38,464 nt of DNA, taken from Phoronis australis (lineage: Eukaryota > Animalia > Phoronida). The DNA is taken from assembly GCA_002633005.1 (NCBI GenBank), contig NMRA01000050.1, positions 154,959 to 193,422 of the forward strand, in the 5' to 3' direction. Below, one piece after another: positions 3,090-35,158 of the stretch. Made by a program: the position numbers and the translations under genes. Every line of letters starts with the position of its first letter. The stretch's first letter is position 1. Below the pieces are notes generated by a model. It did no database searches and had not been told where the DNA came from. It saw only the letters and a list, made by a program, of their open reading frames with translations.

Positions 3090-4100
3090 TTCTTTGATGA
3101 TTTCTTTGTGATGTGATGTGATCTGTGTGCATATTAAATTTAATGTTGGGGTCTAAAATAATGCCCAATACTGAAACTTGTAGACACTCTCGACAGAAGA
3201 TCCGTTGGTAGAAAGAGACAGTTTCTGTTGTTTTAATTTCTCTTGGGTTCCCTACAGCATAGATTTGGTATTACTAACGTTCAGAGTGAGTTTATTTTGA
3301 ACCACCCAGTCATGGATAAGGGCTAGTTCATCGTTGAGAGAAGTTTCAAGTTCAGTCCCTGATACAGCTGTGGACATAATTGCGATGTCGTCAGCACATA
3401 AAACTGGTACACTGTTGTGGAAGACAGTAGGGAGATTGTTAACAAAAATCGTGAACAATAGGGGGTCCAGAGTAGTCAGAAATAATACCACCGTACTTGG
3501 TAGCCTGTTTAGGTCGTAAAAGTAGTTTTTAAATCAAAGAAGCTCGTTACCCCCATAGGAGTCTAGTTTCTTTAATAGGTTACCATGATCCACAATCTCA
3601 AAGGCTTTCTTAAAGTCAACAAAATAGCACCTGTAAGCCTCCCCTGATCGATATTGGTAAAGGTAAACTCAGTAGCGTGTAGCCAAAGTAGAATGTGTGG
3701 GGCGGAAACCAGACTGTGCTGTCGATAGAAGGGAATTTTCCTGCAGGAACTAATGAAGCTGCTTTTTGACACAACTTTCAAGATTTTTGGACACTGCAAT
3801 GAGGACCGATATCGGTCTATAATTCTCGCAACTGTACTTTTCACCGTCATTAAAAACAGGAGTACTGCCTGCCATCTTCCAATGATTAGGAATTGTCGAC
3901 GTTTTTTAAACTTGACATCATGATATTGGTAAGCGGCTCAGCTATTTGCGTACACGCCAGTTTTAATTGTTTGCTATCGATGCCACTTGCACTACTCAAG
4001 CTTAAGAGTTTTTATTTGTGCTCTTACGTAGTCAACTTGAATGGTCTGAAACTTAAATGGTATTCCCTTCTGTACCTTGGGCGGGAGTTAAAATAGTTGA
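3090..4100 (-). pseudogene. Degenerate non-LTR (LINE, CR1/L2-like) reverse transcriptase fragment
   Basis: RT motifs occur in the expected order across frameshifts and stops on the minus strand: WKMA..TPVF, YRPISVL..VSKNLE, FVDFKKAFEIVDHGNLLKKLDSYG, PLLFTIFVNNLP, LCADD (YADD box), WVVQNKLTLNVSNTKSM, GIILDPNIKF. Confidence 0.9.
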
Positions 4101-5528
4101 CGCACTGAATTTGTATGCCGATTTTAGCCAATGCCAGTAAAAAATCACCAAATGCATTTGGTGTGGTAAAATAAACATTTAAGCTAAAATCTGTATTCAA
4201 TTTAGTTTAATTGAGAAAAATCAATGTCATGTCAAAAGAGCATTAGTTGGTCCTACATGTAGGTTTCGAATAAGGGTGTATGCGTAAACATCCGTTTCAT
4301 GAAATTTTTAACAAAATGAAGCGGAAGCAGAATCTTTACGAAAATGCGTAGTGGAAACATTTTAAAGCAATAAAATGCTACGATTCCTTTTCAAAATTTG
4401 CTGAAAACGTTTTTAGTGCATCAAAGTCTAAAAATAATTGCTAGGAAAAAATATTTCAGTAACTAGCAGTGATGTACATACTCTTCGAAAATTTGCATTT
4501 TGTTCAAAGGAGATCTAAATATATCTTAAAATAGCTGTAAGACCAAGTTTCATTCTTAACTTTAAGCCACAGTTCATAAAACAGACTCCAAGTGCCAGGG
4601 GCCTGATTGCGAAGAATCTATAGCCAAATGCTGATTTGTTTTTGGCTTTTGTTTTTAGTGTACTACCGAGCACGCTACGGATTCCTCTGTTTTGGCTTCG
4701 ACTTTGTGAAACAGGCAAAGCAGAGCGTGGTTCCAATTTCTGGAACAGTAGATAATTTGCAAACGTCGAAACTGTCGAGTTTTCAGTAAGGCCGTTGACG
4801 CTGCTACATACAGAAAAGGGAAGTCTGTATGCACAACGATAACTCTGAGCCATGCGCACACCCAACCTAAATATAGGGGGGGGCTAGAATTTTTTGATAT
4901 GCGCACCTTTTACTGGAGGAGATCAACAAGGACTAAATAAAAATGGGGCCACTGTGTTCAGGCCCAGGAATTGTGCATTAGCGCCGAGTTTCCGTAAATT
5001 TTGAGGAATTTTGTCTCGTTTGCTTGGACATTTTGTTTCGTTGAGGTGGACCTTCGTGCCCAACTCACCAAATTGGGGGGCTCGTTCAAACTGCTCGTAA
5101 ATATTTGGACTCAAATTCGGATATGTAATGTGGTCCAGAAGGAGAATGTTCTCACGTTACATGTACCTTCCACCAAATTTTCAAATCAGGCGTGCTTAAA
5201 TGATTGATTGCACCTCATTGCATACTCAGAAGGATTTTTTTAGTTTGAGAATGACCTGACGAAATTGTTTACATGTATCCGTACATGCATTGCTGGAAAT
5301 GGGGACAGCTCACAAATCTGAAGGTTCACTTCTCCAAAAATATCTAAAACTTCGAACTTGGGTTTAACTTTATACCTTTTTATGCAAAAGTAAACGATAC
5401 TACGGTTATTAGATGAGCTGAGTGGTGTACCTATACCGAAAACAACGCCCGGGCACTATTGAATTCATGGGCACACAAAATTGCCCGCATGTCTTACGAA
5501 TACGGAAAATGAGTACGTTCTTGCACTT

Positions 5529-6172
5529 TTAAAAGGATTCCAAACCCGGTTTTGGCCTACTGACAATGTTTAAAAATGACTTTCCCAATCCAGTTCTCTG
5601 AAACAAAATGATACTCTGTAACCCTTGACAACTCTCAAAACCTAAAAAATTTGCACTCCTTTCAAAGTTTGCTAAACGGGCAAACGTGACCTACGCTTTT
5701 TGTGAATTGCGTGGCCACTGTGGGAAAAAACACCCACCAAGGACCATAATGTCCAAACTGTGACATTGGCTGCATAGATTTTTAACTGATCCCTTCCTTA
5801 AAAAGGATTCTAAGCCCTGTTTGGATGATTTTAACCAATCGTCGTTCTCGGACCTGCTGGTGCATAAGTAGCGTCAAAGATAAAAACAGGAATTAATTAT
5901 CTAAGAATTCATACCCACTATCTCACGAATAGGACGTTGTGGTGCTTGATGGGTGGTGTTTTCCCAAAGATGCCATGTCACTCGCTAAAGACGTAAGTCA
6001 CGCTTCCCCCTTTAGCAGACTTTTATAGGAGTTTTCTAATTTTCCTCAATTCTGTTGATGGTTGTCTAGCCCATTACAGAGCATTACATGTATTTTTGTT
6101 TCAGAGAACTGGATACGAAAGTCGTTTTAGTATCTGTTAATGGGCCAAAACCTCGTTTGGTATACTTTTTAA
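5529..6172. mobile_element. Foldback/MITE-like element with long imperfect inverted arms, TTAA at both ends
   Basis: Arm ~5530-5800 is the reverse complement of ~5885-6170, e.g. atccagttctctgaaacaaaa vs ttttgtttcagagaactggat, and aaagtttgctaaacgggcaaacgtgacctacg vs cgtaagtcacgcttccccctttagcagacttt. TTAA at 5529-5532 and 6169-6172. Confidence 0.75.
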
Positions 6173-11281: not shown

Positions 11282-11900
11282 AATTCCAGACAGCCCTAGA
11301 CCTAACGGAGGACGAGATGGGTGTGTACCTGAGCTATGAACCTGAATTTTTTGATCAAAATATTTCGTTACAAGATTAGAAAAGCTATCGAGTCGATGTG
11401 TTGTCTGTAATCTATGACCTACTTTAATCCAGGAGTCCCACCAGTTGTGACCTATTTTTCATTTGGCGAAATTGAGCAGACGACAGAATAAAAATATCGG
11501 TGAATCTTCACTGATTTTATTCGAAAGATCATGAAATCTACGGTATAGTACGCATAATTCGACTTTAAGGTACATACCTAGCTTTACAAGAACATATCGT
11601 ATCAGTGGCCTTGTCGTTTGTCACTGGTGGCCCTGAGCCCGAAGGATTCTTCGGATTTTCGCAGGCTCCTCGAGCACTTATTTTTTATCGTCACCTTTAC
11701 AAATTCTCATATCATGAACGTACTATTCACTGTTGAAAAGCATCGCCTCTTGTCTCTGCCGACTCGTTTTCAAATAGTGCAAAAACACTCATCGATTCCA
11801 CCAGGAACGTCGTTTAGCGACAGTGTAATTGCCTCTGACATTTCGTTCGAATGTCGGGTATCACGTGACTTTTCGCATATTGGCGGAGCTTGCGATAGGT

Positions 11901-12333
11901 CAATTGTGCATTGCTGGGTAGCCACTGAGAAATTGGCTGCGATTTTAGGTAACCCTCAAACAAGCCAGAATTGCCAAAAAACTAGTTGGTTGACAGTTTT
12001 TTTGGACCACATTTTCGGAGTCTGTAGGAAAGTTGCTTTCAGAATCTATTGTTGGTTTTAGTCGTGCATCGGCAGGGAAGTGGTGTTTTTGGGGGTGAAA
12101 AGTGCCGATTTTGCACTTTTTGGCCCTATTTTTCTTAGTCTAGCTTGGTTTTCAGTGGGATTGAAATGGTCAAAAATACAAGAGAGAATAAAGTTTCTGG
12201 GCTCATCTGCAGGGCTTTTTATGTGAAATATCTGAAAACATGTCATCCTTTGCATCCTGTTTTTGACAGAGTGAAGAAAAGGTGACAAAGCAACTGATGT
12301 GGGTTTTGCCCAGCAGAACTGTTCTGTGCCTCC
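11901..12333. repeat. Long terminal direct repeat, copy 1 (left end probably truncated)
   Basis: caattgtgcattgctgggtagc...aactgttctgtgcctcc is highly similar to 15554-15991 in the same orientation. Confidence 0.95.
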
Positions 12334-12665
12334 TTAAAAGAAATGGCGAAATTTCAAGTTTTGGCACCAGTTCTTCTCTCTGCCACAAATCAAAGTCAGA
12401 ACAATAGTTTTTGTTGAATATTTTTTCATTTTTTTTGTAGAAATTGAAGAAAGAATTGTGTGTGACTTTGTACTTGGATCAGCAGATGGCACTGGAGCCC
12501 GGCACCTGGTTGTGGATGTGGTGCTTGCGATTAACTTCAGACACTCATTAATGCATTTGAAATGACAATTTAATGTTCATCAGCAACATTGTGACAGTGT
12601 ACTACAGTGCAATTAAAAACAACTGCCAAATATGCTTTTACAGGTACAACAACCCTCTCTCTGCC

Positions 12666-13047
12666 ATGGCCAGTGCATTCTTCCAAGCACCCTTAAATAA
12701 CCAAGAATCCCATAGTCTAAAACAAACCCTCTCTTTAAAATCTCACCCTGTGGGACAGTGTCAGCTGTGGACAGGTCCTGTAAGTAAGAAAGGATACGGT
12801 GTTCATTGTGTTAAACTTCGAGGGAAATATATCAGCGAGAGTACAAGCTCATCGCTTGTCTTATTACTTGCATGGCATGCCCCAGCGGCTGTCCCAGTCC
12901 CACCACGTCTCCCACCTCTGTCATAACCCTTCCTGTATAAAATTCTCTCACCTTTCTTATGAACACCCCAAAATTAACAACTCAAGGCAAATTTGTAAAA
13001 ATAAAATCATGCCTGCTGACTATGGTAATCCTATCAAGAGCTTTTAA
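12666..13047 (+). pseudogene. His-Me finger (zinc-binding loop, homing-endonuclease-like) nuclease, frameshifted
   Basis: CQLWTGPVSKKGYG, then after a frameshift near 12825, AHRLSY...VSHLCHNPSCIKFSHLSYEHPKINNSRQIC. This fits the His-Cys box pattern SHLCHN..C.NP.HL..E....N..R..C. Confidence 0.92.
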
Positions 13048-13093
13048 GTTCCGTTTATTTTTTCATTTGGTTATTGCTTTGACAAAAATACAG

Positions 13094-14939
13094 TTAGTAA
13101 CTACATGTAAGTCCGTAGCTGTGGTCAGTGGCACTAGTAGACGCTATGTTTTCCGTACTATAAACAGATTTGTCAAACAGATTCGTGTTGGCCATCCTCT
13201 CCCTTAGGTAGTACCTGGCCTTTTTGTACTCTTGGCTCAACTTTCTCTGGGCATGGTGGCGCTTTCTGGAGTCGACATTTCACAGCATTTTTCTCATGGC
13301 ACTGTTTTCAGGCACGGTTAGTCCTGATTCCTCGGCCAGCTTCACCGTGGATTTCCCTTGTCCCAGGGTTCTAGAGTGAATGGCTGAATGACACAGCCCC
13401 GTGAAGTTTCGAGTGTATCTTGATGTCTTTGTCGCATGTGCATAAGCTTCTGCATTCAAACTTTCACTGACGTTTGTGTTGAAAAGATAGTGTATATCTC
13501 TTAGCTGTTCCTGGTCAAAGTAGGGATTGATTTTTGTTTGAATCGTTTTCAAGTCCTTTTCACTCAGTTCTAGATGCCGGTCATAAGGCAAATGATATGG
13601 CTTGTTGTACAGTTGCTATGGTGTGCAATGCACACAGACGACAGCTCGCGACATTACTGGTGCTGTCCCGAAAAACAGCGAGTAACATTGTTCCCCGCAG
13701 CAGGTCCAACTTTCAAAAATTCATCTCTTTCGATGTTTCTGTTTTTTAGGTTGATGAGCTCTTTTCGCACTCTGGCTCGTACAGCAGATGAAAGTTTCCT
13801 CTTGTAACAAGTCTTGTTATGTGACCTGGGTAAACTTTTCGAGTCCGCTTCGTTAACGCTTTTTTCCATTCGCCTCAGTCTGTGAATGAAGCATTTGTAG
13901 TGTTTAGGTTTTTTCTTTTGGTACTGTAGAAATCACTTCTTGGTTGCTGACATCGGTCGTAATGCTCCTGATATTCAGGTCCACGCCGCTGATTTCCACT
14001 GCTCTGAGGCTGGCTTGTAACAGGGTGCGTTCACTTGATGCAATTGATTTCTCAGCTGGGTAGTTTTGGCTGCAGTGTTCATGCTTGCACCTGGGAATCC
14101 TGCAGTGTTTGTTAGCCGTGGCAAGGGCCAGTGGAAGTTTTAGGGTGGTTGTGTGCTCAACAAGTCCATTGAAGCTCTGCTTAGCTTTCTCGCAGCCACC
14201 CTGTGGCTAATTGGAGTAGGAAATGTCAAACTGAACGTCTGCAACACCTTCACCGCCAGCCACAGTGGTGACTTTTTTAACGTAGCGCTGGTTCTCAATC
14301 ATTTGTTCTTCGTTCAGTTGAGTTACTCTGTGGCTCATGGCATTCATTTTATTCTGCAGACTGCGATTGGATGGTGGCACAATATTCAAGCATGTCAGAA
14401 TGTTGATTACATCCTCAATTCCCACTTTTGACATTTGCACAGGCAATACAGCCTAGCTGTTCAAGGCTCTAGGTGGTGGCCTAGTCTTCTGCTACTTGGC
14501 ACAGTGGGCGATTTATATTTGCAAACTCTGCAGTGCAATGATGCATAGACACACAGTCCCAGTATCTTTTCAACAATTAGCTTTAGTTTTCCAAATTTGC
14601 ATGCAACCTGATGCACATGTCCCACCAGGCCTGTTAAGCGACGCACGTTAATGATGATATTCTCATCCAGTCCTTTGCTGTCATGAATTTTTCTTTCTTT
14701 TCAGTACTTGGCCTGAACCTGTAAGCTGTCGCAGCAGCATCACTGTCAATTAGGTAGGTGACATCCTCAGCTTCGAAATGTGAGAGACGCTCAGCCGTGC
14801 AATCGTCTATTGCTGCCTTGGGCTGCCTTGGTATGCTGCAGCTGCAGTAGTCCATATTGGAGTGCCTGTGTCCTTTTTTAAATTGGCATTTTATTCTCCC
14901 TCTGCTCCTAGTGAAACAACGTGGCTTTTCAGGATACAT
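13094..14939 (-). pseudogene. DDE transposase (Kolobok / Mutator-like fold), disrupted by stops and frameshifts
   Basis: Contiguous fragments: N-terminal QFKKGH, zinc-finger HCRVCKY, VQFDISYSN (D at 14225-14227), RSITTDVS (D at 13952-13954), YKCFIH (CxxH), NTNVSESLN (E at 13463-13465), RNFTGLCHSAIH, C-terminal DHSY, stop at 13094. Confidence 0.88.
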
Positions 14940-15553
14940 TGTGTGTGCTCATCACTCAAAGCTTGTTCTCATGACTTTTGTAGTTATGCAAATCGATTCT
15001 AATAAATATGTCCCCTATACACAAGGGGCCTTGATGAGAACATGTTCCACTTGTGGGGTTAGGAAATTAACTTAAATTAAACTTTTATTGTTATATCAAT
15101 GTGCTAATTTATCAATTTTCCCCAATTCCCTCAATCAAAAGTCTGTTTAGTACAAAGTAGGGCAAGAAATTGCACTTGATGGCTTTGTCTAGCTGTGAAA
15201 TGGCCCTAGTTCAAAAATCCCAGTTTTTGGGTGGGCACATGCAATCGGCTTGAAAAATCAAAAACGGTCATCGCTTCACGTTTTTACTTTGCAAAATAGG
15301 TCAGCAGGTGGAGAGGAACTATTCTGAACAAAATTTGGAAAATGTGGCACTGAATAGTTAGGCTGCGGCCGCGGCCAATTTGCACTGCCAAAACATTAAA
15401 ATTTTGGGGTAGGCCAAGTTTGGGGGCATTTTGTAGGTGGGCATTGCACGTAGGCTCAGTGAATGTAGTTTGTTTGCATTTGTGAAAATGCTGAGAAAAA
15501 AGCCACTTTCTCGGCTGTAGCTGCACTCTTTTTCAAGATAGCGGCCCCGGGTG

Positions 15554-15991
15554 CAATTGTGCATTGCTGGGTAGCGACTGAGAAATTGGCTGCGATTTTA
15601 GGTATCCCTCAAACAAGCCAGAATTGCCAAAAAACTAGAAGTTTGACAGTACTTTTGGACCCCATTTTAGGAATTTGTAGGAAATTTGCTTTCAGAATCT
15701 ATTGTTGGTTTTAGTCGTGCATCGGTAGGGAAGTGGTGTTTTTGGGGGTGAAAAGTGCCGATTTTGCACTTTTTGGCCCTATTTTCTTAGTAATTAGCTT
15801 GGTTTTCAGTGGGATTGAAATGGTCAAAAATACAAGAGAGAATAAAGTTTCTGCGCTCATCTGCAGGGCCTTTTATTTGAAATAACTGCAAACATGTCAT
15901 TCTTTGCATCTTATTTTTGACAGAGTGAAGAAAAGGTGACAAATCAAGCGATGTGGGTTTTGCCCAGCAGTGAGAACTGTTCTGTGCCTCC
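15554..15991. repeat. Long terminal direct repeat, copy 2
   Basis: Same-orientation match to 11901-12333. It may extend further left, where copy 1 has no counterpart. Confidence 0.95.
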
Positions 15992-18009
15992 TCAGGAACT
16001 TGTCTTGAACATTTTCATTTTTTCCTTGTAACTGAATGTGCTCTCGCTTGCTCGAAGTTTTCATTATTTTGTTATATTAGTAATATATCGTGATTCGTTT
16101 GTGTATGTGTCGTGTATTTATAGTTTGTAGTTAGTGTTCGTTGAATTTCTTTGGAATATTACGCGTACTTATTATGTTAAAATAGCATTGGTGTTTATTT
16201 CCTTACGTAGGGCGGTCGAACCTAGGAACCAATATGAGTCGAACCAATTTTTTCTTTCTCGTTTTGAAAAAGTGCTTTGCTATCATTGGAAAGTCAGTGC
16301 ATCCTACTAAGTAAAAATCGAAAAAGTATCAAAATCAGGGCAAGTACTGTAAAGTTAATGTAAATTTTGTGGAGAAATTTGGGTCACTTTGTTTGGATCG
16401 CGTCGGCTATATTGGAGGACAGCGGTATAAGTTACGAGTTTAAAACTTTGTGTAAATTGTTTTTGCCAACAATTTACGGTGAAATTTAGTGAGACATATC
16501 TTTACTTACTGCACGATTCAACAGTGTTCACCAAAGTTCAGCCTCGCAGTTGTTACTCATTAGGTGATAAATGTGCCCACAATTCCCGTTGGACTTCGTC
16601 TCATTTCTGGCGGCATCGACAACATGGCGACTTTTGCTGAACTGTAAGGGATGTTCAACCTGTTACTTTGTAATTTGTGAAGATTTAACGTTGATACATT
16701 TTGACAAACGTTGCTACAAAAAAGAAACTTTGTTCAATTTTTGTGTTTTTGTGCAAAAATATGAGATAATTCGAATTATTTTACTGTGAATTTCCCATTC
16801 AGGTGATCTTACACTAAGCTAAAAAAAATTGAAATAATTTTGAAATGTTTTTTGTTTGATCATCAACTGCTGTTCAAGGCTTGATTAGGTGTCACAAAAT
16901 GATTCATATTTTTCTAAATTTTAAGTCTCAATTGCTTTCAAGTCATGTTTTGTAACTTATTGCTTCTTAATTCAGGTTATCAAGTCAACAATATGAAAAA
17001 TCTTAATTTGACAAATATGCCACATGTATGTTGGATTGTGAAGCTTCAAGCCTCCAATTCTTGTTCCTTCCAACTTCATATTTTTTTAATCATGCTTGTC
17101 AAATTCTGCTGTAAGGAAACACTATTCGGTCACCATGGTAATAGTTACATGTATGTCCATTTTAATATCGTGGAAACTTTTGCTGTTGAATAGTGTTTGT
17201 AATGCTAAATGTTGTAAAGTATTGTGCATTTTAAGTTACTTATTATGTTAAGAGGTTGAATCATTTTGGCTTAATGAATAAATGTGATAACATTTTGTAT
17301 TAGACTTGTCATACTTATGTGCTCGAACGAGCCCCCTATTTGGAGAAATAGAAAAAGGTCAGCCTCAGTCAGAGAAGCACGAACTCCGAAAAAAGTAGAA
17401 AACGAGACGATATTCCATTAGAAGACAAGAAGTGTCAAAATTTAGCGTCTGCAATTCATAACTCTGAACATACCCAGTGAATCTTATTGTAAAAGATAGA
17501 CATTCCCAAAAATTCCAGCCCCCCATTTTTTGAAGCTTGGTGCGCTCACACAAAGTCTGGGAAAATCTCTGTTGAAAGTCAACACCTTTGCACAGTTTGC
17601 CAGAAGTAAACGAGTTCTAAATAAACCTCGTTTGAGCGAGCGCTGTGGCCAGCGACCAGGTGGGCCTAAGGGTAGCCTTGGCCCATTGGCCATATTTCAT
17701 CAGCAAACTCAATAAAATTGTATTTCGATTTTATTACAATCAAGTTGCGCTGTCCATTATTTTATTCCCGTTTGCAGGCGGGTAACAGGCACTCGTCCAT
17801 TCACACAGACGGTGTTTTCTTAGCCTGGGTTCCTGAACGAATTGAACTTCTGAGTTCGCGGCAAGTTCAAAAGGGGGGTGGTTCTTCGGGTGCGAATTGT
17901 GAGTGGGGCATTCATTTAAACTTTTTTCGAATACGGATCGTGTATTAGTTATGGGGATCCTTATAACATCCTGTAACCATGTAATAAGGGTTAATAACGC
18001 GTGAGACCA

Positions 18010-18445
18010 GGACTTTAAACGGACAATATTATCGCACAAATGACCCATGACAGACAAATTGCAATCTGGAATGGATCCGGCAGAAACCGAAAAGAACCCC
18101 CCGCCCCCTGAAATGAGCTAGCTCATACACATGAACAGTCGAGGTACCACAAACACAATTAAATGTGATTCAATACGAGTCAATGATCACTAAGTGCCCC
18201 ATGACAGACGAAATACACTCTGGGTTGTGCCCGCCAGAAACCCCCAAAATTTTCAACCACCGTATGCCATTGAAAAATTGAGCTAGATTAGGTACAATGT
18301 ATATACGAGGCACTAGCTAAAACTGATTTAAAACGGACCATAGTACCGCACTGAAAACCAAGTGACCCATGACAGACAAGTTGCATTCTAGAAAGGGTCT
18401 GCCAGAAACCTAAAATGACCCCCCCCCCCCAAATAAGCTAATTAT
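18010..18445. repeat. Degenerate tandem repeat, ~3 units of ~155-170 bp
   Basis: The core catgacagac...(c/g)cagaaacc recurs at 18046, 18200 and 18368, each followed by a C-rich tract and gagcta/aagcta. Confidence 0.85.
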
Positions 18446-19394
18446 TACACCGATTTATGTAAAGTGCAGAACGGTGTTGCTCAACATCTGTGTTCCGCGG
18501 GGCAAGACAAACATATGCATTAGCTGCATGGCCCTTGAATGGGTGACATTTGTGTAACAAAGGGATTAAAAATACTTCGTTATGGTCCTAACACTGCAAT
18601 ATTTTCCCACCGCCGAGATTGAGCTCATAGACTACTAGGCCATAGTCCATTCGACTCTAGGAAACCTAGAAAATCACTTCCGTGGTCACTTTTTGGGGGC
18701 AAGATAATTTTGGTGTTTTTATGGTCATTAAGTACTATCATACTTTAAGAATGTAAAAAGTTCCGAAGGTTTGATTTTCACGTTTACGAGAAATTTGACC
18801 TCAAAAATCTGACTTTTTGCATAATTGGCTAAGAAAACCAATCTTCAAAAACCAACAACACAAGCTAAAAACTGAATGATAATTTGATTGGGATTTGTTC
18901 ATTTGATGTTACTGGACAAGAAAAGTGATATATATTATGATATTTGTTGGAAATTTGCTCAAAAAAGAGATAAAGAAATATTTTAGCAGCGCCTCCTGTT
19001 AGCCAGAAAACATACCTCTACATTCTGATCTGCCAAAAAAACAAATACTGTCAAACATTTTGATGGAACTTGATGAAGATTTGATATCACAACCTACATA
19101 TGAACAATCTACATTTCCAAATCCTCTGAAACAAATTCACTGCCATCATATTGATTAATTGTCACAATTAATTATCATTTTCCACATTGCTGTTCACTGT
19201 CAACTGTCACAGGGAACGATACATCCAACAGTCCCCACAGTCTTCAGCATGTTGTAAGTATTTTCCATTAGGTTGAAAATTTAAAGTTCTTTAACAACAT
19301 AGCATACACTTATTGTGTTTTTTCATCCACTCCATCATCATTTATATCACCATTATTGCCGCCAAAAGCTGATTTTTTTGACTGAGACACCGTG

Positions 19395-19790
19395 TTCACA
19401 AAGTCTGGACAGTCAAACAACTTAGAACATGGCATGCCTGACTTCAAACAAGAACACATTTTTTACTACAACCACTTCTTTTACACTTGCCATTAAGATT
19501 TTTCGTGGCATTTTCTGGGGCTAATGGCAGAGCCATCCAGTGGAACTTCAGAATAACCTGCTCCAAAAGCCACCCATTACCAACTGGAGATGGTGCACTG
19601 ACATGCTGTTGCAAGACTCGTTTGTGAATGACACACTGATAGTTTGATCTTTTAGCGTGTAACAGCAAACGATCATGAGGAGGAGGCAGATCACAGATTT
19701 CAACCTGAATATGTGGTAGCGTGCTTTGTTAACTGTTGATGACTCGCGGTACAGCTCGTCTACAAACGGTTCAATGTCTTCCATGAGTTA
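19395..19790 (-). pseudogene. Academ-type protein C-terminus with Cys-rich (Cys8/CXC) finger
   Basis: IEPFVDELY..VNKARYHIF, LLHAKRSNYQ..PSPVGNGW...W..PLAP..KCKRSGCSKK, then after a frameshift CSCLKSGMPCSKLFDCPDFVN. Confidence 0.8.
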
Positions 19791-20916
19791 ACAAGGAAAC
19801 TAAAATTTTGAGCCCAACTTTAATGGCAAAGACAAAGTTAGAAAAATCTCTTCAAGCCTGCATTCTACCCAAAATAAAAAAAAGTTTTGGTAACCTGAAT
19901 ACCGTTTCATCTAAACACCTTGTTACAGTAATCCTATTGAATTGAAATACATGTAGATAACCAAAATGCTCTTCGCTTTAGCAGACAGTACGGCCAACAA
20001 CTGAAATTTCATTTTATCAAAGTGCTCAGCGAAAATAAGCATTAAGAGAAATGAACATCATTATTAGCATTGATTGCACTGTGCAGCTGCCTTCAAACAA
20101 TTTAAAACATAGAAACATTTTTATCATCCTTAATACAGAAGTTCAGCCTTTGAAAAATAGAGGAATGGTCATATTGGCAATAGTTTTAGCGTCTTCTTTA
20201 CAGTAGAGCTAAAATTTCTTTTGACTTCCTGTTTTAAAATGCACATAATTGGAAGATTAAATATTTTCTTCGATAAAAATTCCCATTCAATAATCTTCAA
20301 AACGTGAGATACTGAAATCTGCGCAACACTTGAATTTTCAAAATAAAGGAATTACAGAACACAGGAAATATGTCCAATTTTATATTTCTCAAATTCTAAG
20401 CACTGCTCATGACTTTACATTAAAGGGTCTAAAAATAGGCTTAGAAATTCATAAAAGCACTGCTGATTTCTCGCATGTAGGTAAAAACTACTGCCAGTAC
20501 ATTTGGGATTGAGACGAGTATTATTACAAATTTATCAAGCAAAATAGTTTTTGGGATGTGACCTAAACTAAAGATCATTTACCATAAATGATACCTTTTC
20601 AAATTAAGCATAGGTAGACCTTTTTACAAATGAATCTTTGGAACTGGGATAGATTTTCAACTTTTCTTTTGTTTTTGAAGTTCTCCTGTGATGAAATTTG
20701 ATTTGTGGCAAATGGTGCATTATGGTGGCAAGACATATACGGTATATTTCTTTGAGCACTGTTAAATTTACATGTAACTGACAGTGACAATCTCCTTAAT
20801 TTTCTCTTGGGCTCAACATTATTTCCATCATCAGTTTGGTCTCTTTTTCTTTTTTAAAAGCTCTTTGAATTTTTGTTACATCCGTTAAATGTCTGTAACA
20901 CTGTCTGTGATAGAAG

Positions 20917-21153
20917 CATGCGCGCACCAAGCCTAAAAATGGGGGGCTCGAGTGGACATTTATTAAAAGTCACGGGGTACTTCAGATCTACGAATTGTGT
21001 GTTCGTCGATTTTTTGTAGTACATGTACCTGCCTTTTTAGTGAACTTTTGTTTCGTTTTCTACTTTTTCGAAGTTTTTGTTTCACCGAGGCGGACATTTT
21101 TACTCACTTTACCAAGCCCCTGAGACTCCCACCCCTCAGTGGGTATGCGCATG
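20917..21153. mobile_element. Small MITE nested in the Academ-like element
   Basis: Imperfect TIRs catgcgcgcacc / ggtatgcgcatg. The left end resembles 4851-4887 (catgcgcacacccaacctaaatatagggggggctag). No clear TSD. Confidence 0.6.
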
Positions 21154-24720: not shown

Positions 24721-25322
24721 CTATACCCTCCTTATTTTAAGAACTGAACTTTTCAAAATTACGTGTTTTCCTGGATAATATTTCATGCATTGGTTCTCGT
24801 TTTGGGCTGGGCAATTCCCGCTAGTTGGATAAATACTATTTAAAGCTAACCTAGCACAGTTTGCATACCACCACCCACCACTATTTATTTCTGCACAACT
24901 TTTTTTGTTACTTTGGTCATTATCTTGGTCTATTGTCGAAAAACGAGCTCCGTTTAATTCGCTCATCGAATATTTGGGATTGGAGTCAACATTTGCAGAT
25001 ATTGACAATTTGTATTTCTCTTTCTCATTGGCTATTGCGAATGAACTATGTTCACGTGTTACACTCGTGCCATGCCATGTGGTCATTACGTATTGTATTT
25101 TGTACTGAGCCTGCTGAGTGACGTATTGAATGTTGTCATTTCCGAGCCACAGCTCTCCTCCGAGGTCGCCAAAACCATTCATATAGTCTGACCCGTGCCT
25201 TTTGAAATCAACGCTTCCGTTGAATCTTCGCTGAATTACTATCCACCCTTCTTCGCAGATCACATCGAAGGTCTTGTGACGGTTCAGCGGTCGGATGCGC
25301 AGAACGCCGTTGTAGTGAATGC
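24721..25322 (-). CDS. Fibrinogen-related domain protein (FReD; ficolin/angiopoietin-like), terminal exon or pseudogene
   Basis: The open frame has C..GWIVIQRRFNGSVDF, Y.NGFGDLGGELWLGNDNI, FSTIDQDND, CA....GGWWYANC...LN and the terminal LKIR. It extends upstream of the listed start (GIHYNGVLRIRP) to a candidate acceptor tttttctag at 25323. Confidence 0.9.
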
Positions 25323-26322
25323 CTAGAAAAACTTAATACAATCTGAATTCCACGTGGTGCTCTATCTGTCTAAACTGTATGCGAGTGTGTGGCTTTCTGA
25401 ATAGAGTACACGTGTTGCTCAGAGTCACAAAATTGCACATATCTTCAAAATTATCGCACACAAATACATATTCGTTGGATTCTCAACGAAATATCTGTAA
25501 AAAGAATATCGGGATAAGTACAATCAAATAAATGTGTATTTTTCTTAAAATCAGATTTTCTTCCTAATATTTTCACCTTCTGTAATACCCATTTTCTTGG
25601 TTACAAATGGGATTTTTAGGCATTAAAAGGCTAATGGTCACACTTGACAAAATACACTGTTACGTCGAGTATGACAATATACGCCGTAGATATAGACATA
25701 TGTTGCCCGCCAGGGGACAATGTGTCGGCATTCCCGGCACGTATTCTTCATGAAGGATACTGTCAACACCTGCACAAACATGTAGTATCCCCCGGGTGAC
25801 AATATGTGCCGCTGATCCCAGGATGCATTTTGAGCAGTACATTACATGTAAGTGGTTTACGTTATTTGTTTGAGGGGGCCTTTGGTCACAAGACAAATAT
25901 CAAGGTTGTAAGGGGAAAGGACATATTCTGAAAACTTGAAGAAAGAAAAATGAGGTCACGCATGAATGTTGAATAGACCAAAGTATATTAGACCCACAAG
26001 TGAATTTGACTTTTTGTGTTGGAGAGGGATCTCGGTCAATGGCCATGGATCATGCTGTGTATCTGGACGCCATCCCCAAACTAGAAGGAGGTGGAAAGTC
26101 GTAATACCAACCGACGTCATGGTGTCATTTCCGACATCATTTATGTAGCGCTTGTCACCCTCTATCACCAAGAAGTTCTGACAATAAAAATACATTCAAA
26201 TGGGTCTGAGGCGTTCTACTGATCGAGATTGGGGGCAGGGGATAAAAGATTGGTTCCACTATTTTACGTGCTCCACGCCTCATGCCGTCTTAGTCATCTT
26301 ATTCAAAATTATCACCCATTGT

Positions 26323-26327
<5 letters not shown>

Positions 26328-26365
<38 letters not shown>
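26328..26365. repeat. (CT)n microsatellite running into the gap
   Basis: Perfect ct dinucleotide run. Confidence 0.98.
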
Positions 26366-26707
26366 NNNNNNNNNNNNNNNNNNNNNNNNNNNNNNNNNNN
26401 NNNNNNNNNNNNNNNNNNNNNNNNNNNNNNNNNNNNNNNNNNNNNNNNNNNNNNNNNNNNNNNNNNNNNNNNNNNNNNNNNNNNNNNNNNNNNNNNNNNN
26501 NNNNNNNNNNNNNNNNNNNNNNNNNNNNNNNNNNNNNNNNNNNNNNNNNNNNNNNNNNNNNNNNNNNNNNNNNNNNNNNNNNNNNNNNNNNNNNNNNNNN
26601 NNNNNNNNNNNNNNNNNNNNNNNNNNNNNNNNNNNNNNNNNNNNNNNNNNNNNNNNNNNNNNNNNNNNNNNNNNNNNNNNNNNNNNNNNNNNNNNNNNNN
26701 NNNNNNN
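26366..26707. other. Assembly gap (N run)
   Basis: Run of n bases. Confidence 0.99.
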
Positions 26708-26780
26708 ATTTCAAAACAAGGTTACACATGCATCTGCTAAAGCTGGTAATGTAAACAGTGGTGAAGGTTTTGTCGAAGTC

Positions 26781-26942
26781 CAGTGCTGTCAGTGATAAAA
26801 TTAGAGGTAAGTAGGCGCCCAAAGCCCGCCGTATCACCTTGAGCACTGAACTTAACTTACGGACGGGTGCGTAATCGCTACGTACAAATGACAAAATCTG
26901 GTTGGCTGCGCCTACGTGCGCCTACGCCCCACTACAGCAGTG
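26781..26942 (+). mobile_element. hAT-like MITE, copy 1
   Basis: TIRs cagtgctgtcagtg / cactacagcagtg. 8-bp TSD tcgaagtc / tcaaagtc (7/8). Homologous to 32982-33119. Confidence 0.9.
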
Positions 26943-29900: not shown

Positions 29901-30282
29901 AGGACTATTTCCGATGGTTAGTTATAAAATAATGCTGCTTTTTCCAAGAGTATCACAAGAATAGTATTTCTTGTTTAAGATCATTGCTAGGAGTTGTTTG
30001 AAAAGACCTGTCGAAAGGCCTGCCAGGGCTCCGATTTGTGATGACCATCTACATGTCGAACGGGGGTACTCAAAGTACTCTCGAATCATAAACAAGGATG
30101 TCAGCGTTTTTTCCTTGGAATTCAAGTTTACCTCGTGAACTGTTATAGGTGCTGAGCAAAAATGCACCTTAACACGAATGTCCCATCTCAAATGTTCCCC
30201 CGGTTACCCGTCTAGAATCTGCGAACATGCCTGAGGAAACTGCTTATAACATTCCGTTTTGATAAAAAAATTCGTTGGTTTC

Positions 30283-30975
30283 CGATTTACATGTTTATGT
30301 ATCTAGGAAAATCGACAGAATCACAGATGATTTTTGAAAATTAGAATCTAGTATTGTAAAAATTGACGATGTTTCAGTGAATTTAGTTGCAGCCTGAAGT
30401 TGGAAAAAACTTTATAATCAAATCCCAAATAGAAACGTACACTTCCGTTCCCTAATCTAAAATACATCTCAAAGACATTGCTGAAATACGGACAGTTCCC
30501 AATTTAAATGAAAATGTATTCAATGCATTTTGACTGAGGCTTTAGATTTGTCGTTTAAACTCACAAACAGGAGATCAAAAAGAAGTTGAGTCATTAAATC
30601 ATGCTGAACGCATTGCTCGTTGAATCAATTGTTGATGTCTGGTTTACTTGTTTATGTACATGTATCTACAAATATTCGACTAATTGACAGATAATTTTAA
30701 CAATCAGAAGTTAATCATTTACGAAATAACGATGCTTCAGTGAACTAAGCTGCAGGCTGACATCGGTAAAATTTTATCTACCATCAGATCCCAGTAGCAA
30801 AGCACACTAATCTATTTTTGTCTATCTGAAATACGTCTCAAGGATAGTGGTGAATGTCGGAGAGCTCTACAAAATGTTTTCACGATGCAAATGACAATAA
30901 ATTGTTTATTGACTTAGGAGACATATTAGTGATTAAATTCACAAACTGAAGATCGAAAAAAGAAGTTTGAGCCCT
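30283..30975. repeat. Diverged tandem duplication, ~360-bp period, 2 units
   Basis: acgatgtttcagtgaatttagttgcagcctga vs acgatgcttcagtgaactaagctgcaggctga, and ttaaactcacaaacaggagatc vs ttaaattcacaaactgaagatc, at similar offsets. Confidence 0.85.
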
Positions 30976-32981: not shown

Positions 32982-33119
32982 CAGTGCTGTAGTGGTAAAA
33001 TTAAAGGTAAGTAGGCACCCAAAGCCATCGTATCACCTTGAGCACTGAACGTAACTATGTTCAAATGGCAAAAGGTGGTTGGCTGCGCCTACCTGCGCCT
33101 ACGCCCCACTACAGCATTG
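32982..33119 (+). mobile_element. hAT-like MITE, copy 2
   Basis: TIRs cagtgctgtagtgg / ccactacagcattg. 8-bp TSD cttaatgg / cttaatga (7/8). Confidence 0.9.
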
Positions 33120-34568: not shown

Positions 34569-35158
34569 CTCGCTGGTTCCGTGCGTGCCGCTAGGTGGGG
34601 CGGTAGCCGGGCCAGCACGCAGGTATCACTTAAATTTCCTCTGTAAATTTTTTTACACCGGCGTTTCTGATTGGCTAGTCGATTCGTCAACAGGCAGCGC
34701 TTTGCGCAAACAAACTGGCATGGCTGATGGACTGAAGTGTAAATGTGGTCTGTTGTACAGACAAATCGGTGCTTAAAATTTATGTTCAGGAAATGTGAAG
34801 CCTAGAAATTGTGACTGAGCCTTTTCGGAATGCATCTTTCTACTGTCGATGACTTTTGTTTACGATAATGTCCTTATACACTATGAATAACACACCGGTT
34901 AAATCGGCCACATAATGTGTGTTTATTGTGCATGTATGTGTTTCAAGCACGCGGCTATTAAACATCACTGCAGAAACGAAATAGTTGCTGCGACGCCACT
35001 TGCATGACAAGGCTAAAAATCGTTCACAGTCCGCCATTTTTTCAAGGTGTTGTAAAGCTAACCAATGACTGCCAAGATTACATCGACCAATGCTAAAGCG
35101 CGTGCCACTGCGTGATACCTGCGTGCTGGCTGAGCTAAGCACGCAGGGAACCAGCGAG
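34569..35158. mobile_element. Non-autonomous TIR element with 9-bp TSD (AcademH- or MuDR-like; superfamily unresolved)
   Basis: 20-bp TIRs ctcgctggttccgtgcgtgc / gcacgcagggaaccagcgag (1 mismatch), an inner block gccagcacgcaggtatcac / gtgatacctgcgtgctggc, and a perfect TSD gttcaacag at 34560-34568 and 35159-35167. Confidence 0.92.

Follow-up and report, generated by a model that had tools for sequence, protein, structure and literature searches.

A degenerate KolobokP-like transposon copy in Phoronis australis and the putative role of its His-Cys box nuclease

Introduction

KolobokP is a lineage of Kolobok DNA transposons in which an internal region (INT) lies between a pair of long terminal direct repeats (LTDRs), giving the layout LTDR-INT-LTDR (Kojima & Bao 2022, PMC9587614). 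As described there, the transposase is of the DDD/E type, with a C/DxxH signature, a CCHC finger past the first D and a zinc finger ahead of the E, and a downstream gene on the complementary strand encodes a His-Me finger nuclease. The nuclease gene is reported to be retained over seven phyla, some KolobokP families are described without it, and accessory nucleases are also reported for other Kolobok lineages (PMC9587614). The model put forward in the same paper is an induced unequal crossover, in which units are gained as a misaligned sister repeat serves for repair, and a joint between two INT regions is ascribed to the excision of a repeat from a multimer (PMC9587614). According to a 2026 review (PMC13565253), this model awaits experimental confirmation. 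No cleavage data for the KolobokP nuclease were found in the literature under the lineage name, most subscription journals lying outside this search.

Two homing endonucleases are useful for comparison. I-PpoI (PDB 1A73), found in nuclear group I introns, resembles the KolobokP nuclease in its catalytic and first zinc-site residues, which correspond one to one, although the two are only 16-18% identical in structure alignments. I-PpoI resides in an rDNA intron, whereas the KolobokP gene is carried by a DNA transposon and has other residues in the DNA-reading strand, which in I-PpoI spans residues 55-76 (PMC2034468). The phage HNH enzyme I-HmuI (PDB 1U3E) has the same core of beta-beta-alpha-metal type, but it is a monomer with a separate DNA-binding region (PMC3384342).

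Here we analyse a KolobokP-like element in a stretch of 38,464 nucleotides (the window) from the genome of Phoronis australis (GCA_002633005.1, contig NMRA01000050.1, positions 154,959 to 193,422). An account of the lineage with its layout and nuclease, and of the very family, has already been published (PMC9587614). As a discovery, this copy adds little.

Structure and identity of the element

The element, on the minus strand from 15991 to about 11901 (4.1 kb), has long direct repeats, a Kolobok DDE transposase and, convergent to it, the nuclease gene (Table 1). Its family was found through a short motif of the window present in two consensus sequences of P. australis in the published supplement, KolobokP-1_PhoAus and KolobokP-1F_PhoAus. 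By eye, the consensus of KolobokP-1F_PhoAus matches the minus strand along its whole length, the repeat agrees with KolobokP-1F_PhoAus-LTDR (652 bp) in each of its first 42 letters, and the N-terminal protein of the transposase, like the DNA, matches this family. From these similarities, we consider it almost certain that the window holds a dead KolobokP copy very close to KolobokP-1F_PhoAus. They have in common the LTDR-INT-LTDR layout, a GG-starting repeat of the ~660 class, an INT ending in TTAA, the transposase on the element strand and the convergent His-Me nuclease. The window copy differs by its truncated 3' repeat, the loss of TTAA at the 5' junction and the breakage of both genes, and, relative to the consensus, its transposase is visibly more diverged than its nuclease. 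It may belong to a sister subfamily. The best public run shares only 27% of sampled words with the window, so the copy and the run may come from different individuals, populations or Phoronis species.

Table 1. Coordinates of the element's parts within the window
Feature	Position	Strand	Details
5' LTDR	15344..15991	-	648 bp, GG start, imperfect short terminal inverted repeats
INT	12334..15343	-	TTAA end (12337-12334) adjoins 3' LTDR; by-eye match to KolobokP-1F_PhoAus-I
3' LTDR, truncated	11901..12333	-	about 433 of 652 bp; last ~216 bp absent, adjoins unrelated repeat
His-Cys box (I-PpoI-like) nuclease pseudogene	12666..13047	+	Pfam PF05551, I-PpoI alignment and comparison with P0002
4-bp insertion, first frameshift	12834-12837	+	X2 and X8 loose ends at 12835 and 12838; one-residue gap against P0002
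~29 bp deletion site	13003..13004	+	takes most of second zinc motif, shifts frame
Kolobok-type DDD/E transposase pseudogene	13094..14939	-	PF20700 and motif/frame map; motif layout as described for KolobokP
Transposase first D, in QFDIS	14233-14219	-
Transposase CCHC finger	14104-14072	-
Transposase second D, in ITTD	13963-13952	-
Transposase CxxH signature	13893-13882	-
Transposase second zinc finger	13677-13630	-
Transposase E, in TNVSES	13477-13460	-

The stretches 11901-12334 and 15554-15992 form a direct repeat with 92.7% identity; over 432 aligned bases the two LTDRs differ by 25 substitutions (5.8%). Repeats of KolobokP fall into classes of about 450 or about 660 bp; here the 5' repeat has 648 bp and the truncated 3' repeat about 433 bp, against 652 bp in the published one. 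GG at 15991 and 12333 marks the repeat starts, in keeping with the RR...YY termini and terminal inverted repeats of the lineage; the two ends of the 5' repeat match each other at 13 of 18 positions, its last base being deleted, and the end of the 3' repeat is missing. A deletion of ~15 bp at the inner junction of the 5' LTDR removed this last base together with the TTAA-bearing start of INT, while contigs from run X1 retain TTAA at the junction (loose end at 15346). An alternative repeat of 687 bp ending at 15306 was discarded, as the published consensus places the end at 15344.

The missing part of the 3' LTDR was not found elsewhere within the window, and no multimers are present there. A high-copy repeat at 11670-11900 abuts and truncates the 3' LTDR. 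The Phoronis families generate target site duplications of 3 bp; here the 3' end of the element is gone and a single flank remains.

All transposase motifs described for KolobokP occur in order on the minus strand. The reading frame changes four times, at about 14697, 14497, 13935 and 13600, resulting in five frame segments, and it is interrupted by in-frame stops at 14209-14207, 13656-13654 and 13282-13280 and another near 14455, at least two of which are not common to other copies. The terminal stop lies at 13096-13094. Pfam Mutator (PF20700) was detected in two of six transposase fragments, one with E 6.1e-8, above the cut-off, and the other below it (E 0.0018).

The nuclease gene and its lesions

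An endonuclease of the His-Cys box type, carried as cargo by a transposon, had been proposed for this locus from the DNA letters, and both parts of this proposal hold. The motif S-H-L-C-H-N-x-x-C...H-L...E....N..R..C lies where it was predicted, at 12910-12996 on the plus strand of a gene with its ATG at 12666, and the flanking repeats and transposase motifs place the gene in a DDE transposon with direct repeats, not in an rDNA group I intron as for classical His-Cys box enzymes. As in KolobokP, it is downstream of the transposase on the complementary strand. The lack of a His-Me profile match for the repaired protein would have counted against the original prediction; Pfam zf-His_Me_endon (PF05551) matched (E 2.3e-11, 44.5 bits, cut-off 27), on the unjoined fragment 12820-13044. 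Residues H83, C85, C90, H95, E99, N104, R107 and C110 align with I-PpoI H98, C100, C105, H110, E114, N119, R122 and C125; as a single sequence with X at the break, the window nuclease gives only a weak match to I-PpoI (E 0.19).

A single disabling frameshift near 12825 had been expected, but we found two lesions in other places, recognized by comparison with P0002, an intact natural relative of 161 aa with 82% identity across 111 residues. One is the 4-bp insertion at 12834-12837, which contigs and reads of other copies do not have. The other is a deletion of ~29 bp near 13004: the window has no counterpart of P0002 residues 111-121, and residues 122-145 find their match at 13004-13075 in a different frame. 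Two contigs have additional letters ahead of 13004, and the published consensus has 29 additional bases at this place (size by eye). Over the nuclease region, the consensus differs from the window by 11 substitutions (in about 350 bp) and two indels, also counted by eye. The first zinc motif is thus present in this copy and the second one mostly deleted.

These lesions also bear on the relation between the genes, which were believed to lie tail-to-tail. The stops at 13047 and 13094 do exist 46 bp apart. Since the deletion near 13004 shifts the frame, however, the TAA at 13045-13047 does not belong to the nuclease frame, and the 46-bp spacing is therefore not the native layout. In this copy, the homologous nuclease frame continues until a stop whose last base is 13207, and so overlaps the end of the transposase by 114 nt.

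The window copy is dead, with a nuclease broken at two places and a transposase with frameshifts and stops. It is a poor reagent for nuclease function, for which P0002 or other intact natural relatives would serve better. A look for purifying selection used the coding rows among the differences listed (40 of 859 and 40 of 259) and does not amount to a dN/dS. For the nuclease, 5 of 8 changes are synonymous (neutral share 21-34%, P 0.014-0.10); for the transposase, 13 of 36 are (P 0.03-0.51).

Conservation and fold of the nuclease in relatives

We aligned 13 sequences, comprising P0001 and the 12 matching ones from 14 relatives; P0014 and P0015, with weak HNH_3 matches, were left out. The relatives match the His-Cys box family PF05551 above cut-off and HNH_3 only below it. 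They are 36-79% identical to P0002 and share 12 invariant columns, including S-H-L-C-H-N, C89, H94, E98 and N103. All 13 sequences have the catalytic His and the metal-binding Asn, and the first-zinc residues do not vary either; the equivalents of I-PpoI S97, H110 and E114 are present. P0002 has the whole second zinc motif (C-x5-C-x2-H-x5-C), and of 12 relatives 8 have it complete, 3 in part and 1 not at all. Judging from these sequences, the lineage has both zinc motifs, unlike the window copy. The region corresponding to the DNA-binding strand of I-PpoI varies among relatives, as would be expected if each family had its own target.

Searches against PDB with single sequences gave weak results (E 0.12-0.36), and only the alignment profile was significant, with I-PpoI chains in all five matches (best E 9.8e-7). 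In one of the weak single-sequence searches, a processivity factor ranked equal to I-PpoI, and we discarded it as unrelated.

A comparison of a structure model with I-PpoI had also been suggested, and it was made with P0002 instead of the window copy. The AlphaFold model has a mean pLDDT of 79.7, falling under 50 at residues 119-129, in the second zinc region. Foldseek places I-PpoI first (E 4e-3), and so does VIA-align (Z 8.1, rmsd 4.1, 108 aligned), where I-HmuI (Z 7.2) is tied within 1 of I-PpoI and is followed by Smad MH1 and NFI (Z 5.3 and 4.8). The I-PpoI-like fold is thus predicted for the model of P0002 and not for the window copy. Taken together, conservation and modelling suggest that the nuclease is probably a working enzyme in the lineage. 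A metagenome scan with P0002 returned 244 pattern matches, none of which was confirmed.

Other copies of the family

DNA contigs covering the element were obtained from four runs (X1, X2, X4 and X5), representing at most two samples. An X1 contig with depth 2211 jumps from position 12688 straight to 13066; corresponding loose ends exist in X2 and X4. Because the 27 letters between the two sides of the joint resemble the window just past the nuclease gene, the true deletion is about 12689-13041. As a share of the transposase-bin median, depth over the nuclease bin amounts to 4.9%, 4.2%, 5.1% and 0% in the four runs, bearing in mind that contig depth is not copy number. The direction is consistent across runs: most copies in X1, X2, X4 and X5 are without the nuclease gene. 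The deletion fits the shorter published consensus, KolobokP-1_PhoAus (4047 bp, against 4423 bp for the gene-bearing one; PMC9587614). With the deleted form dominant, amplification seems independent of a nuclease gene in cis, which suggests that the gene is not needed in cis. The useful addition here is that one family contains both a form with the gene and a far more abundant form that has lost it, so that their multimer frequencies could be compared directly on long reads.

For RNA, three runs with the same species label (X6, X7 and X8) were used, about a fifth of each being read. The joint 12688 to 13066 of the X1 DNA contigs also occurs in their reads, in both orientations (19, 19 and 1 reads). 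Only 3 of 1450 aligned RNA reads are 99% alike to the window, so the reads come from other copies. Mean depth over the nuclease core is 7.4, 7.7 and 8.4 for one orientation, against 1.0, 0.9 and 0.0 for the opposite one; the majority orientation would be antisense to the nuclease if the library is of the commonest stranded type, the library type not being on record. A pile of ~320 reads at 13034-13067, with loose ends on both sides, was set aside as belonging to an unrelated transcript.

One contig from X2, aligned at 80% likeness, links the end of INT to its start via a single TTAA (joint 15347 to 12334).

Possible roles of the nuclease

By analogy with known enzymes, we tentatively favour the reading in which the nuclease of active relatives cuts a family-specific site in or at its own LTDRs, so that host recombination builds tandem multimers, a reading that we hold as possible but short of probable. 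From the published account and the enzyme classes, the DDE transposase would excise and insert the element, or a single repeat, via the short inverted repeats, whereas the nuclease, as a zinc-bound dimer like I-PpoI, would make the break in or at an LTDR. Repair using a misaligned sister repeat would then add units, as in an induced unequal crossover, and the nuclease could probably act in trans, on gene-less copies too. The INT-INT joint from X2 speaks for this role, being the junction that the original authors ascribe to repeat excision from a multimer (PMC9587614). Against it stand the dominance of the nuclease-deleted form in our data, which weighs most against a role that must be exercised in cis, the published families without a nuclease (PMC9587614), and the scarcity of RNA reads on the nuclease core, nearly all in one orientation. 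The original prediction had supposed that cutting resolves or regenerates the direct repeats, an idea close to the model of Kojima & Bao (PMC9587614).

Part of that idea belongs to a different reading, in which the nuclease is an accessory to transposition: it would either open a circular intermediate where the abutted ends form a near-palindrome or nick the donor, thereby regenerating the second repeat (see also Fig. 5b of PMC9587614). The ends of the LTDRs form an imperfect inverted repeat, TTAA stands at their junctions with INT, I-PpoI is reported to cut a semi-palindrome leaving TTAA overhangs, and the accessory nucleases of other Kolobok lineages offer a precedent (PMC9587614). However, the nuclease-deleted form is abundant and its published consensus keeps both repeats. 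The junction between INT and the 3' repeat was considered as an I-PpoI-like site (site from PMC2602781) and rejected as a chance resemblance: it matches at 11 of 15 positions, and 12 window sites reach 11 or more, so that it is equalled or bettered by 11 others. Six of its matching letters follow from the Kolobok termini, and the remainder has P of about 0.05-0.10. We regard an accessory role as unlikely.

Alternatively, the gene could be a selfish passenger with no role in the repeat structure, homing among element copies or protecting the element at the donor site after excision. Its descent from homing endonucleases and the coexistence of forms with and without it would fit, and so would a nuclease that is closer to the consensus than the transposase (by eye), which could reflect exchange between subfamilies. 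The last point is weakened by the fact that the consensus of this rare region was built from few copies, explaining a closer match. Moreover, the gene-less form still has the gene's initial codons and its tail (joint 12688), which indicates a later deletion and not an empty homing site, and the gene is described as kept across seven phyla (PMC9587614). This makes a purely selfish passenger rather improbable.

A further reading, in which the protein regulates the transposon by binding DNA without cutting it, as would Smad MH1 and NFI with their common fold, is very hard to sustain: these two came next in the fold searches, and Smad MH1 has been described as a degraded homing endonuclease (PMC3384342), but the catalytic His and metal-binding Asn of the nuclease do not vary in any aligned sequence.

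Returning to amplification by cutting in the LTDRs, a more elaborate version for the phoronid family is that rare gene-bearing copies cut the shared direct repeats of the larger nuclease-deleted pool and expand it in trans, possibly as collapsed tandem arrays, while antisense read-through from the transposase damps the nuclease. We offer this as a speculation with a low chance of being right; if true, it would offer a case from nature in which to test break-induced amplification of the homing type for a eukaryotic DNA transposon.

Other features of the window

On the minus strand, an open frame of 203 aa at 24721-25332 contains a fibrinogen C-terminal domain (PF00147, E 9.6e-42) and is probably an exon of a host gene. 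The region 3255-3533, on the same strand, has a weak RVT_1 fragment below cut-off (E 0.0039) with short frames nearby (3572-3937 and 4515-4883) and is likely a decayed non-LTR retrotransposon. A cluster of long frames at 26188-26921 was dismissed as an effect of an N gap, runs of N being present at 1614-1766 and 26366-26707.

At 17352-21101, imperfect inverted repeats about 3.7 kb apart enclose internal repeats of 70-110 bp (18011-18440). The two frames searched there gave no Pfam match, and the region may be another DNA transposon of the non-autonomous type. At 5528-6172 and 34569-35158 lie two MITE-like elements with inverted repeats, each about 600 bp long, besides a dispersed duplicate with 77% identity (26781-26942 and 32982-33119) and a diverged tandem pair with 68% (30269-30967).
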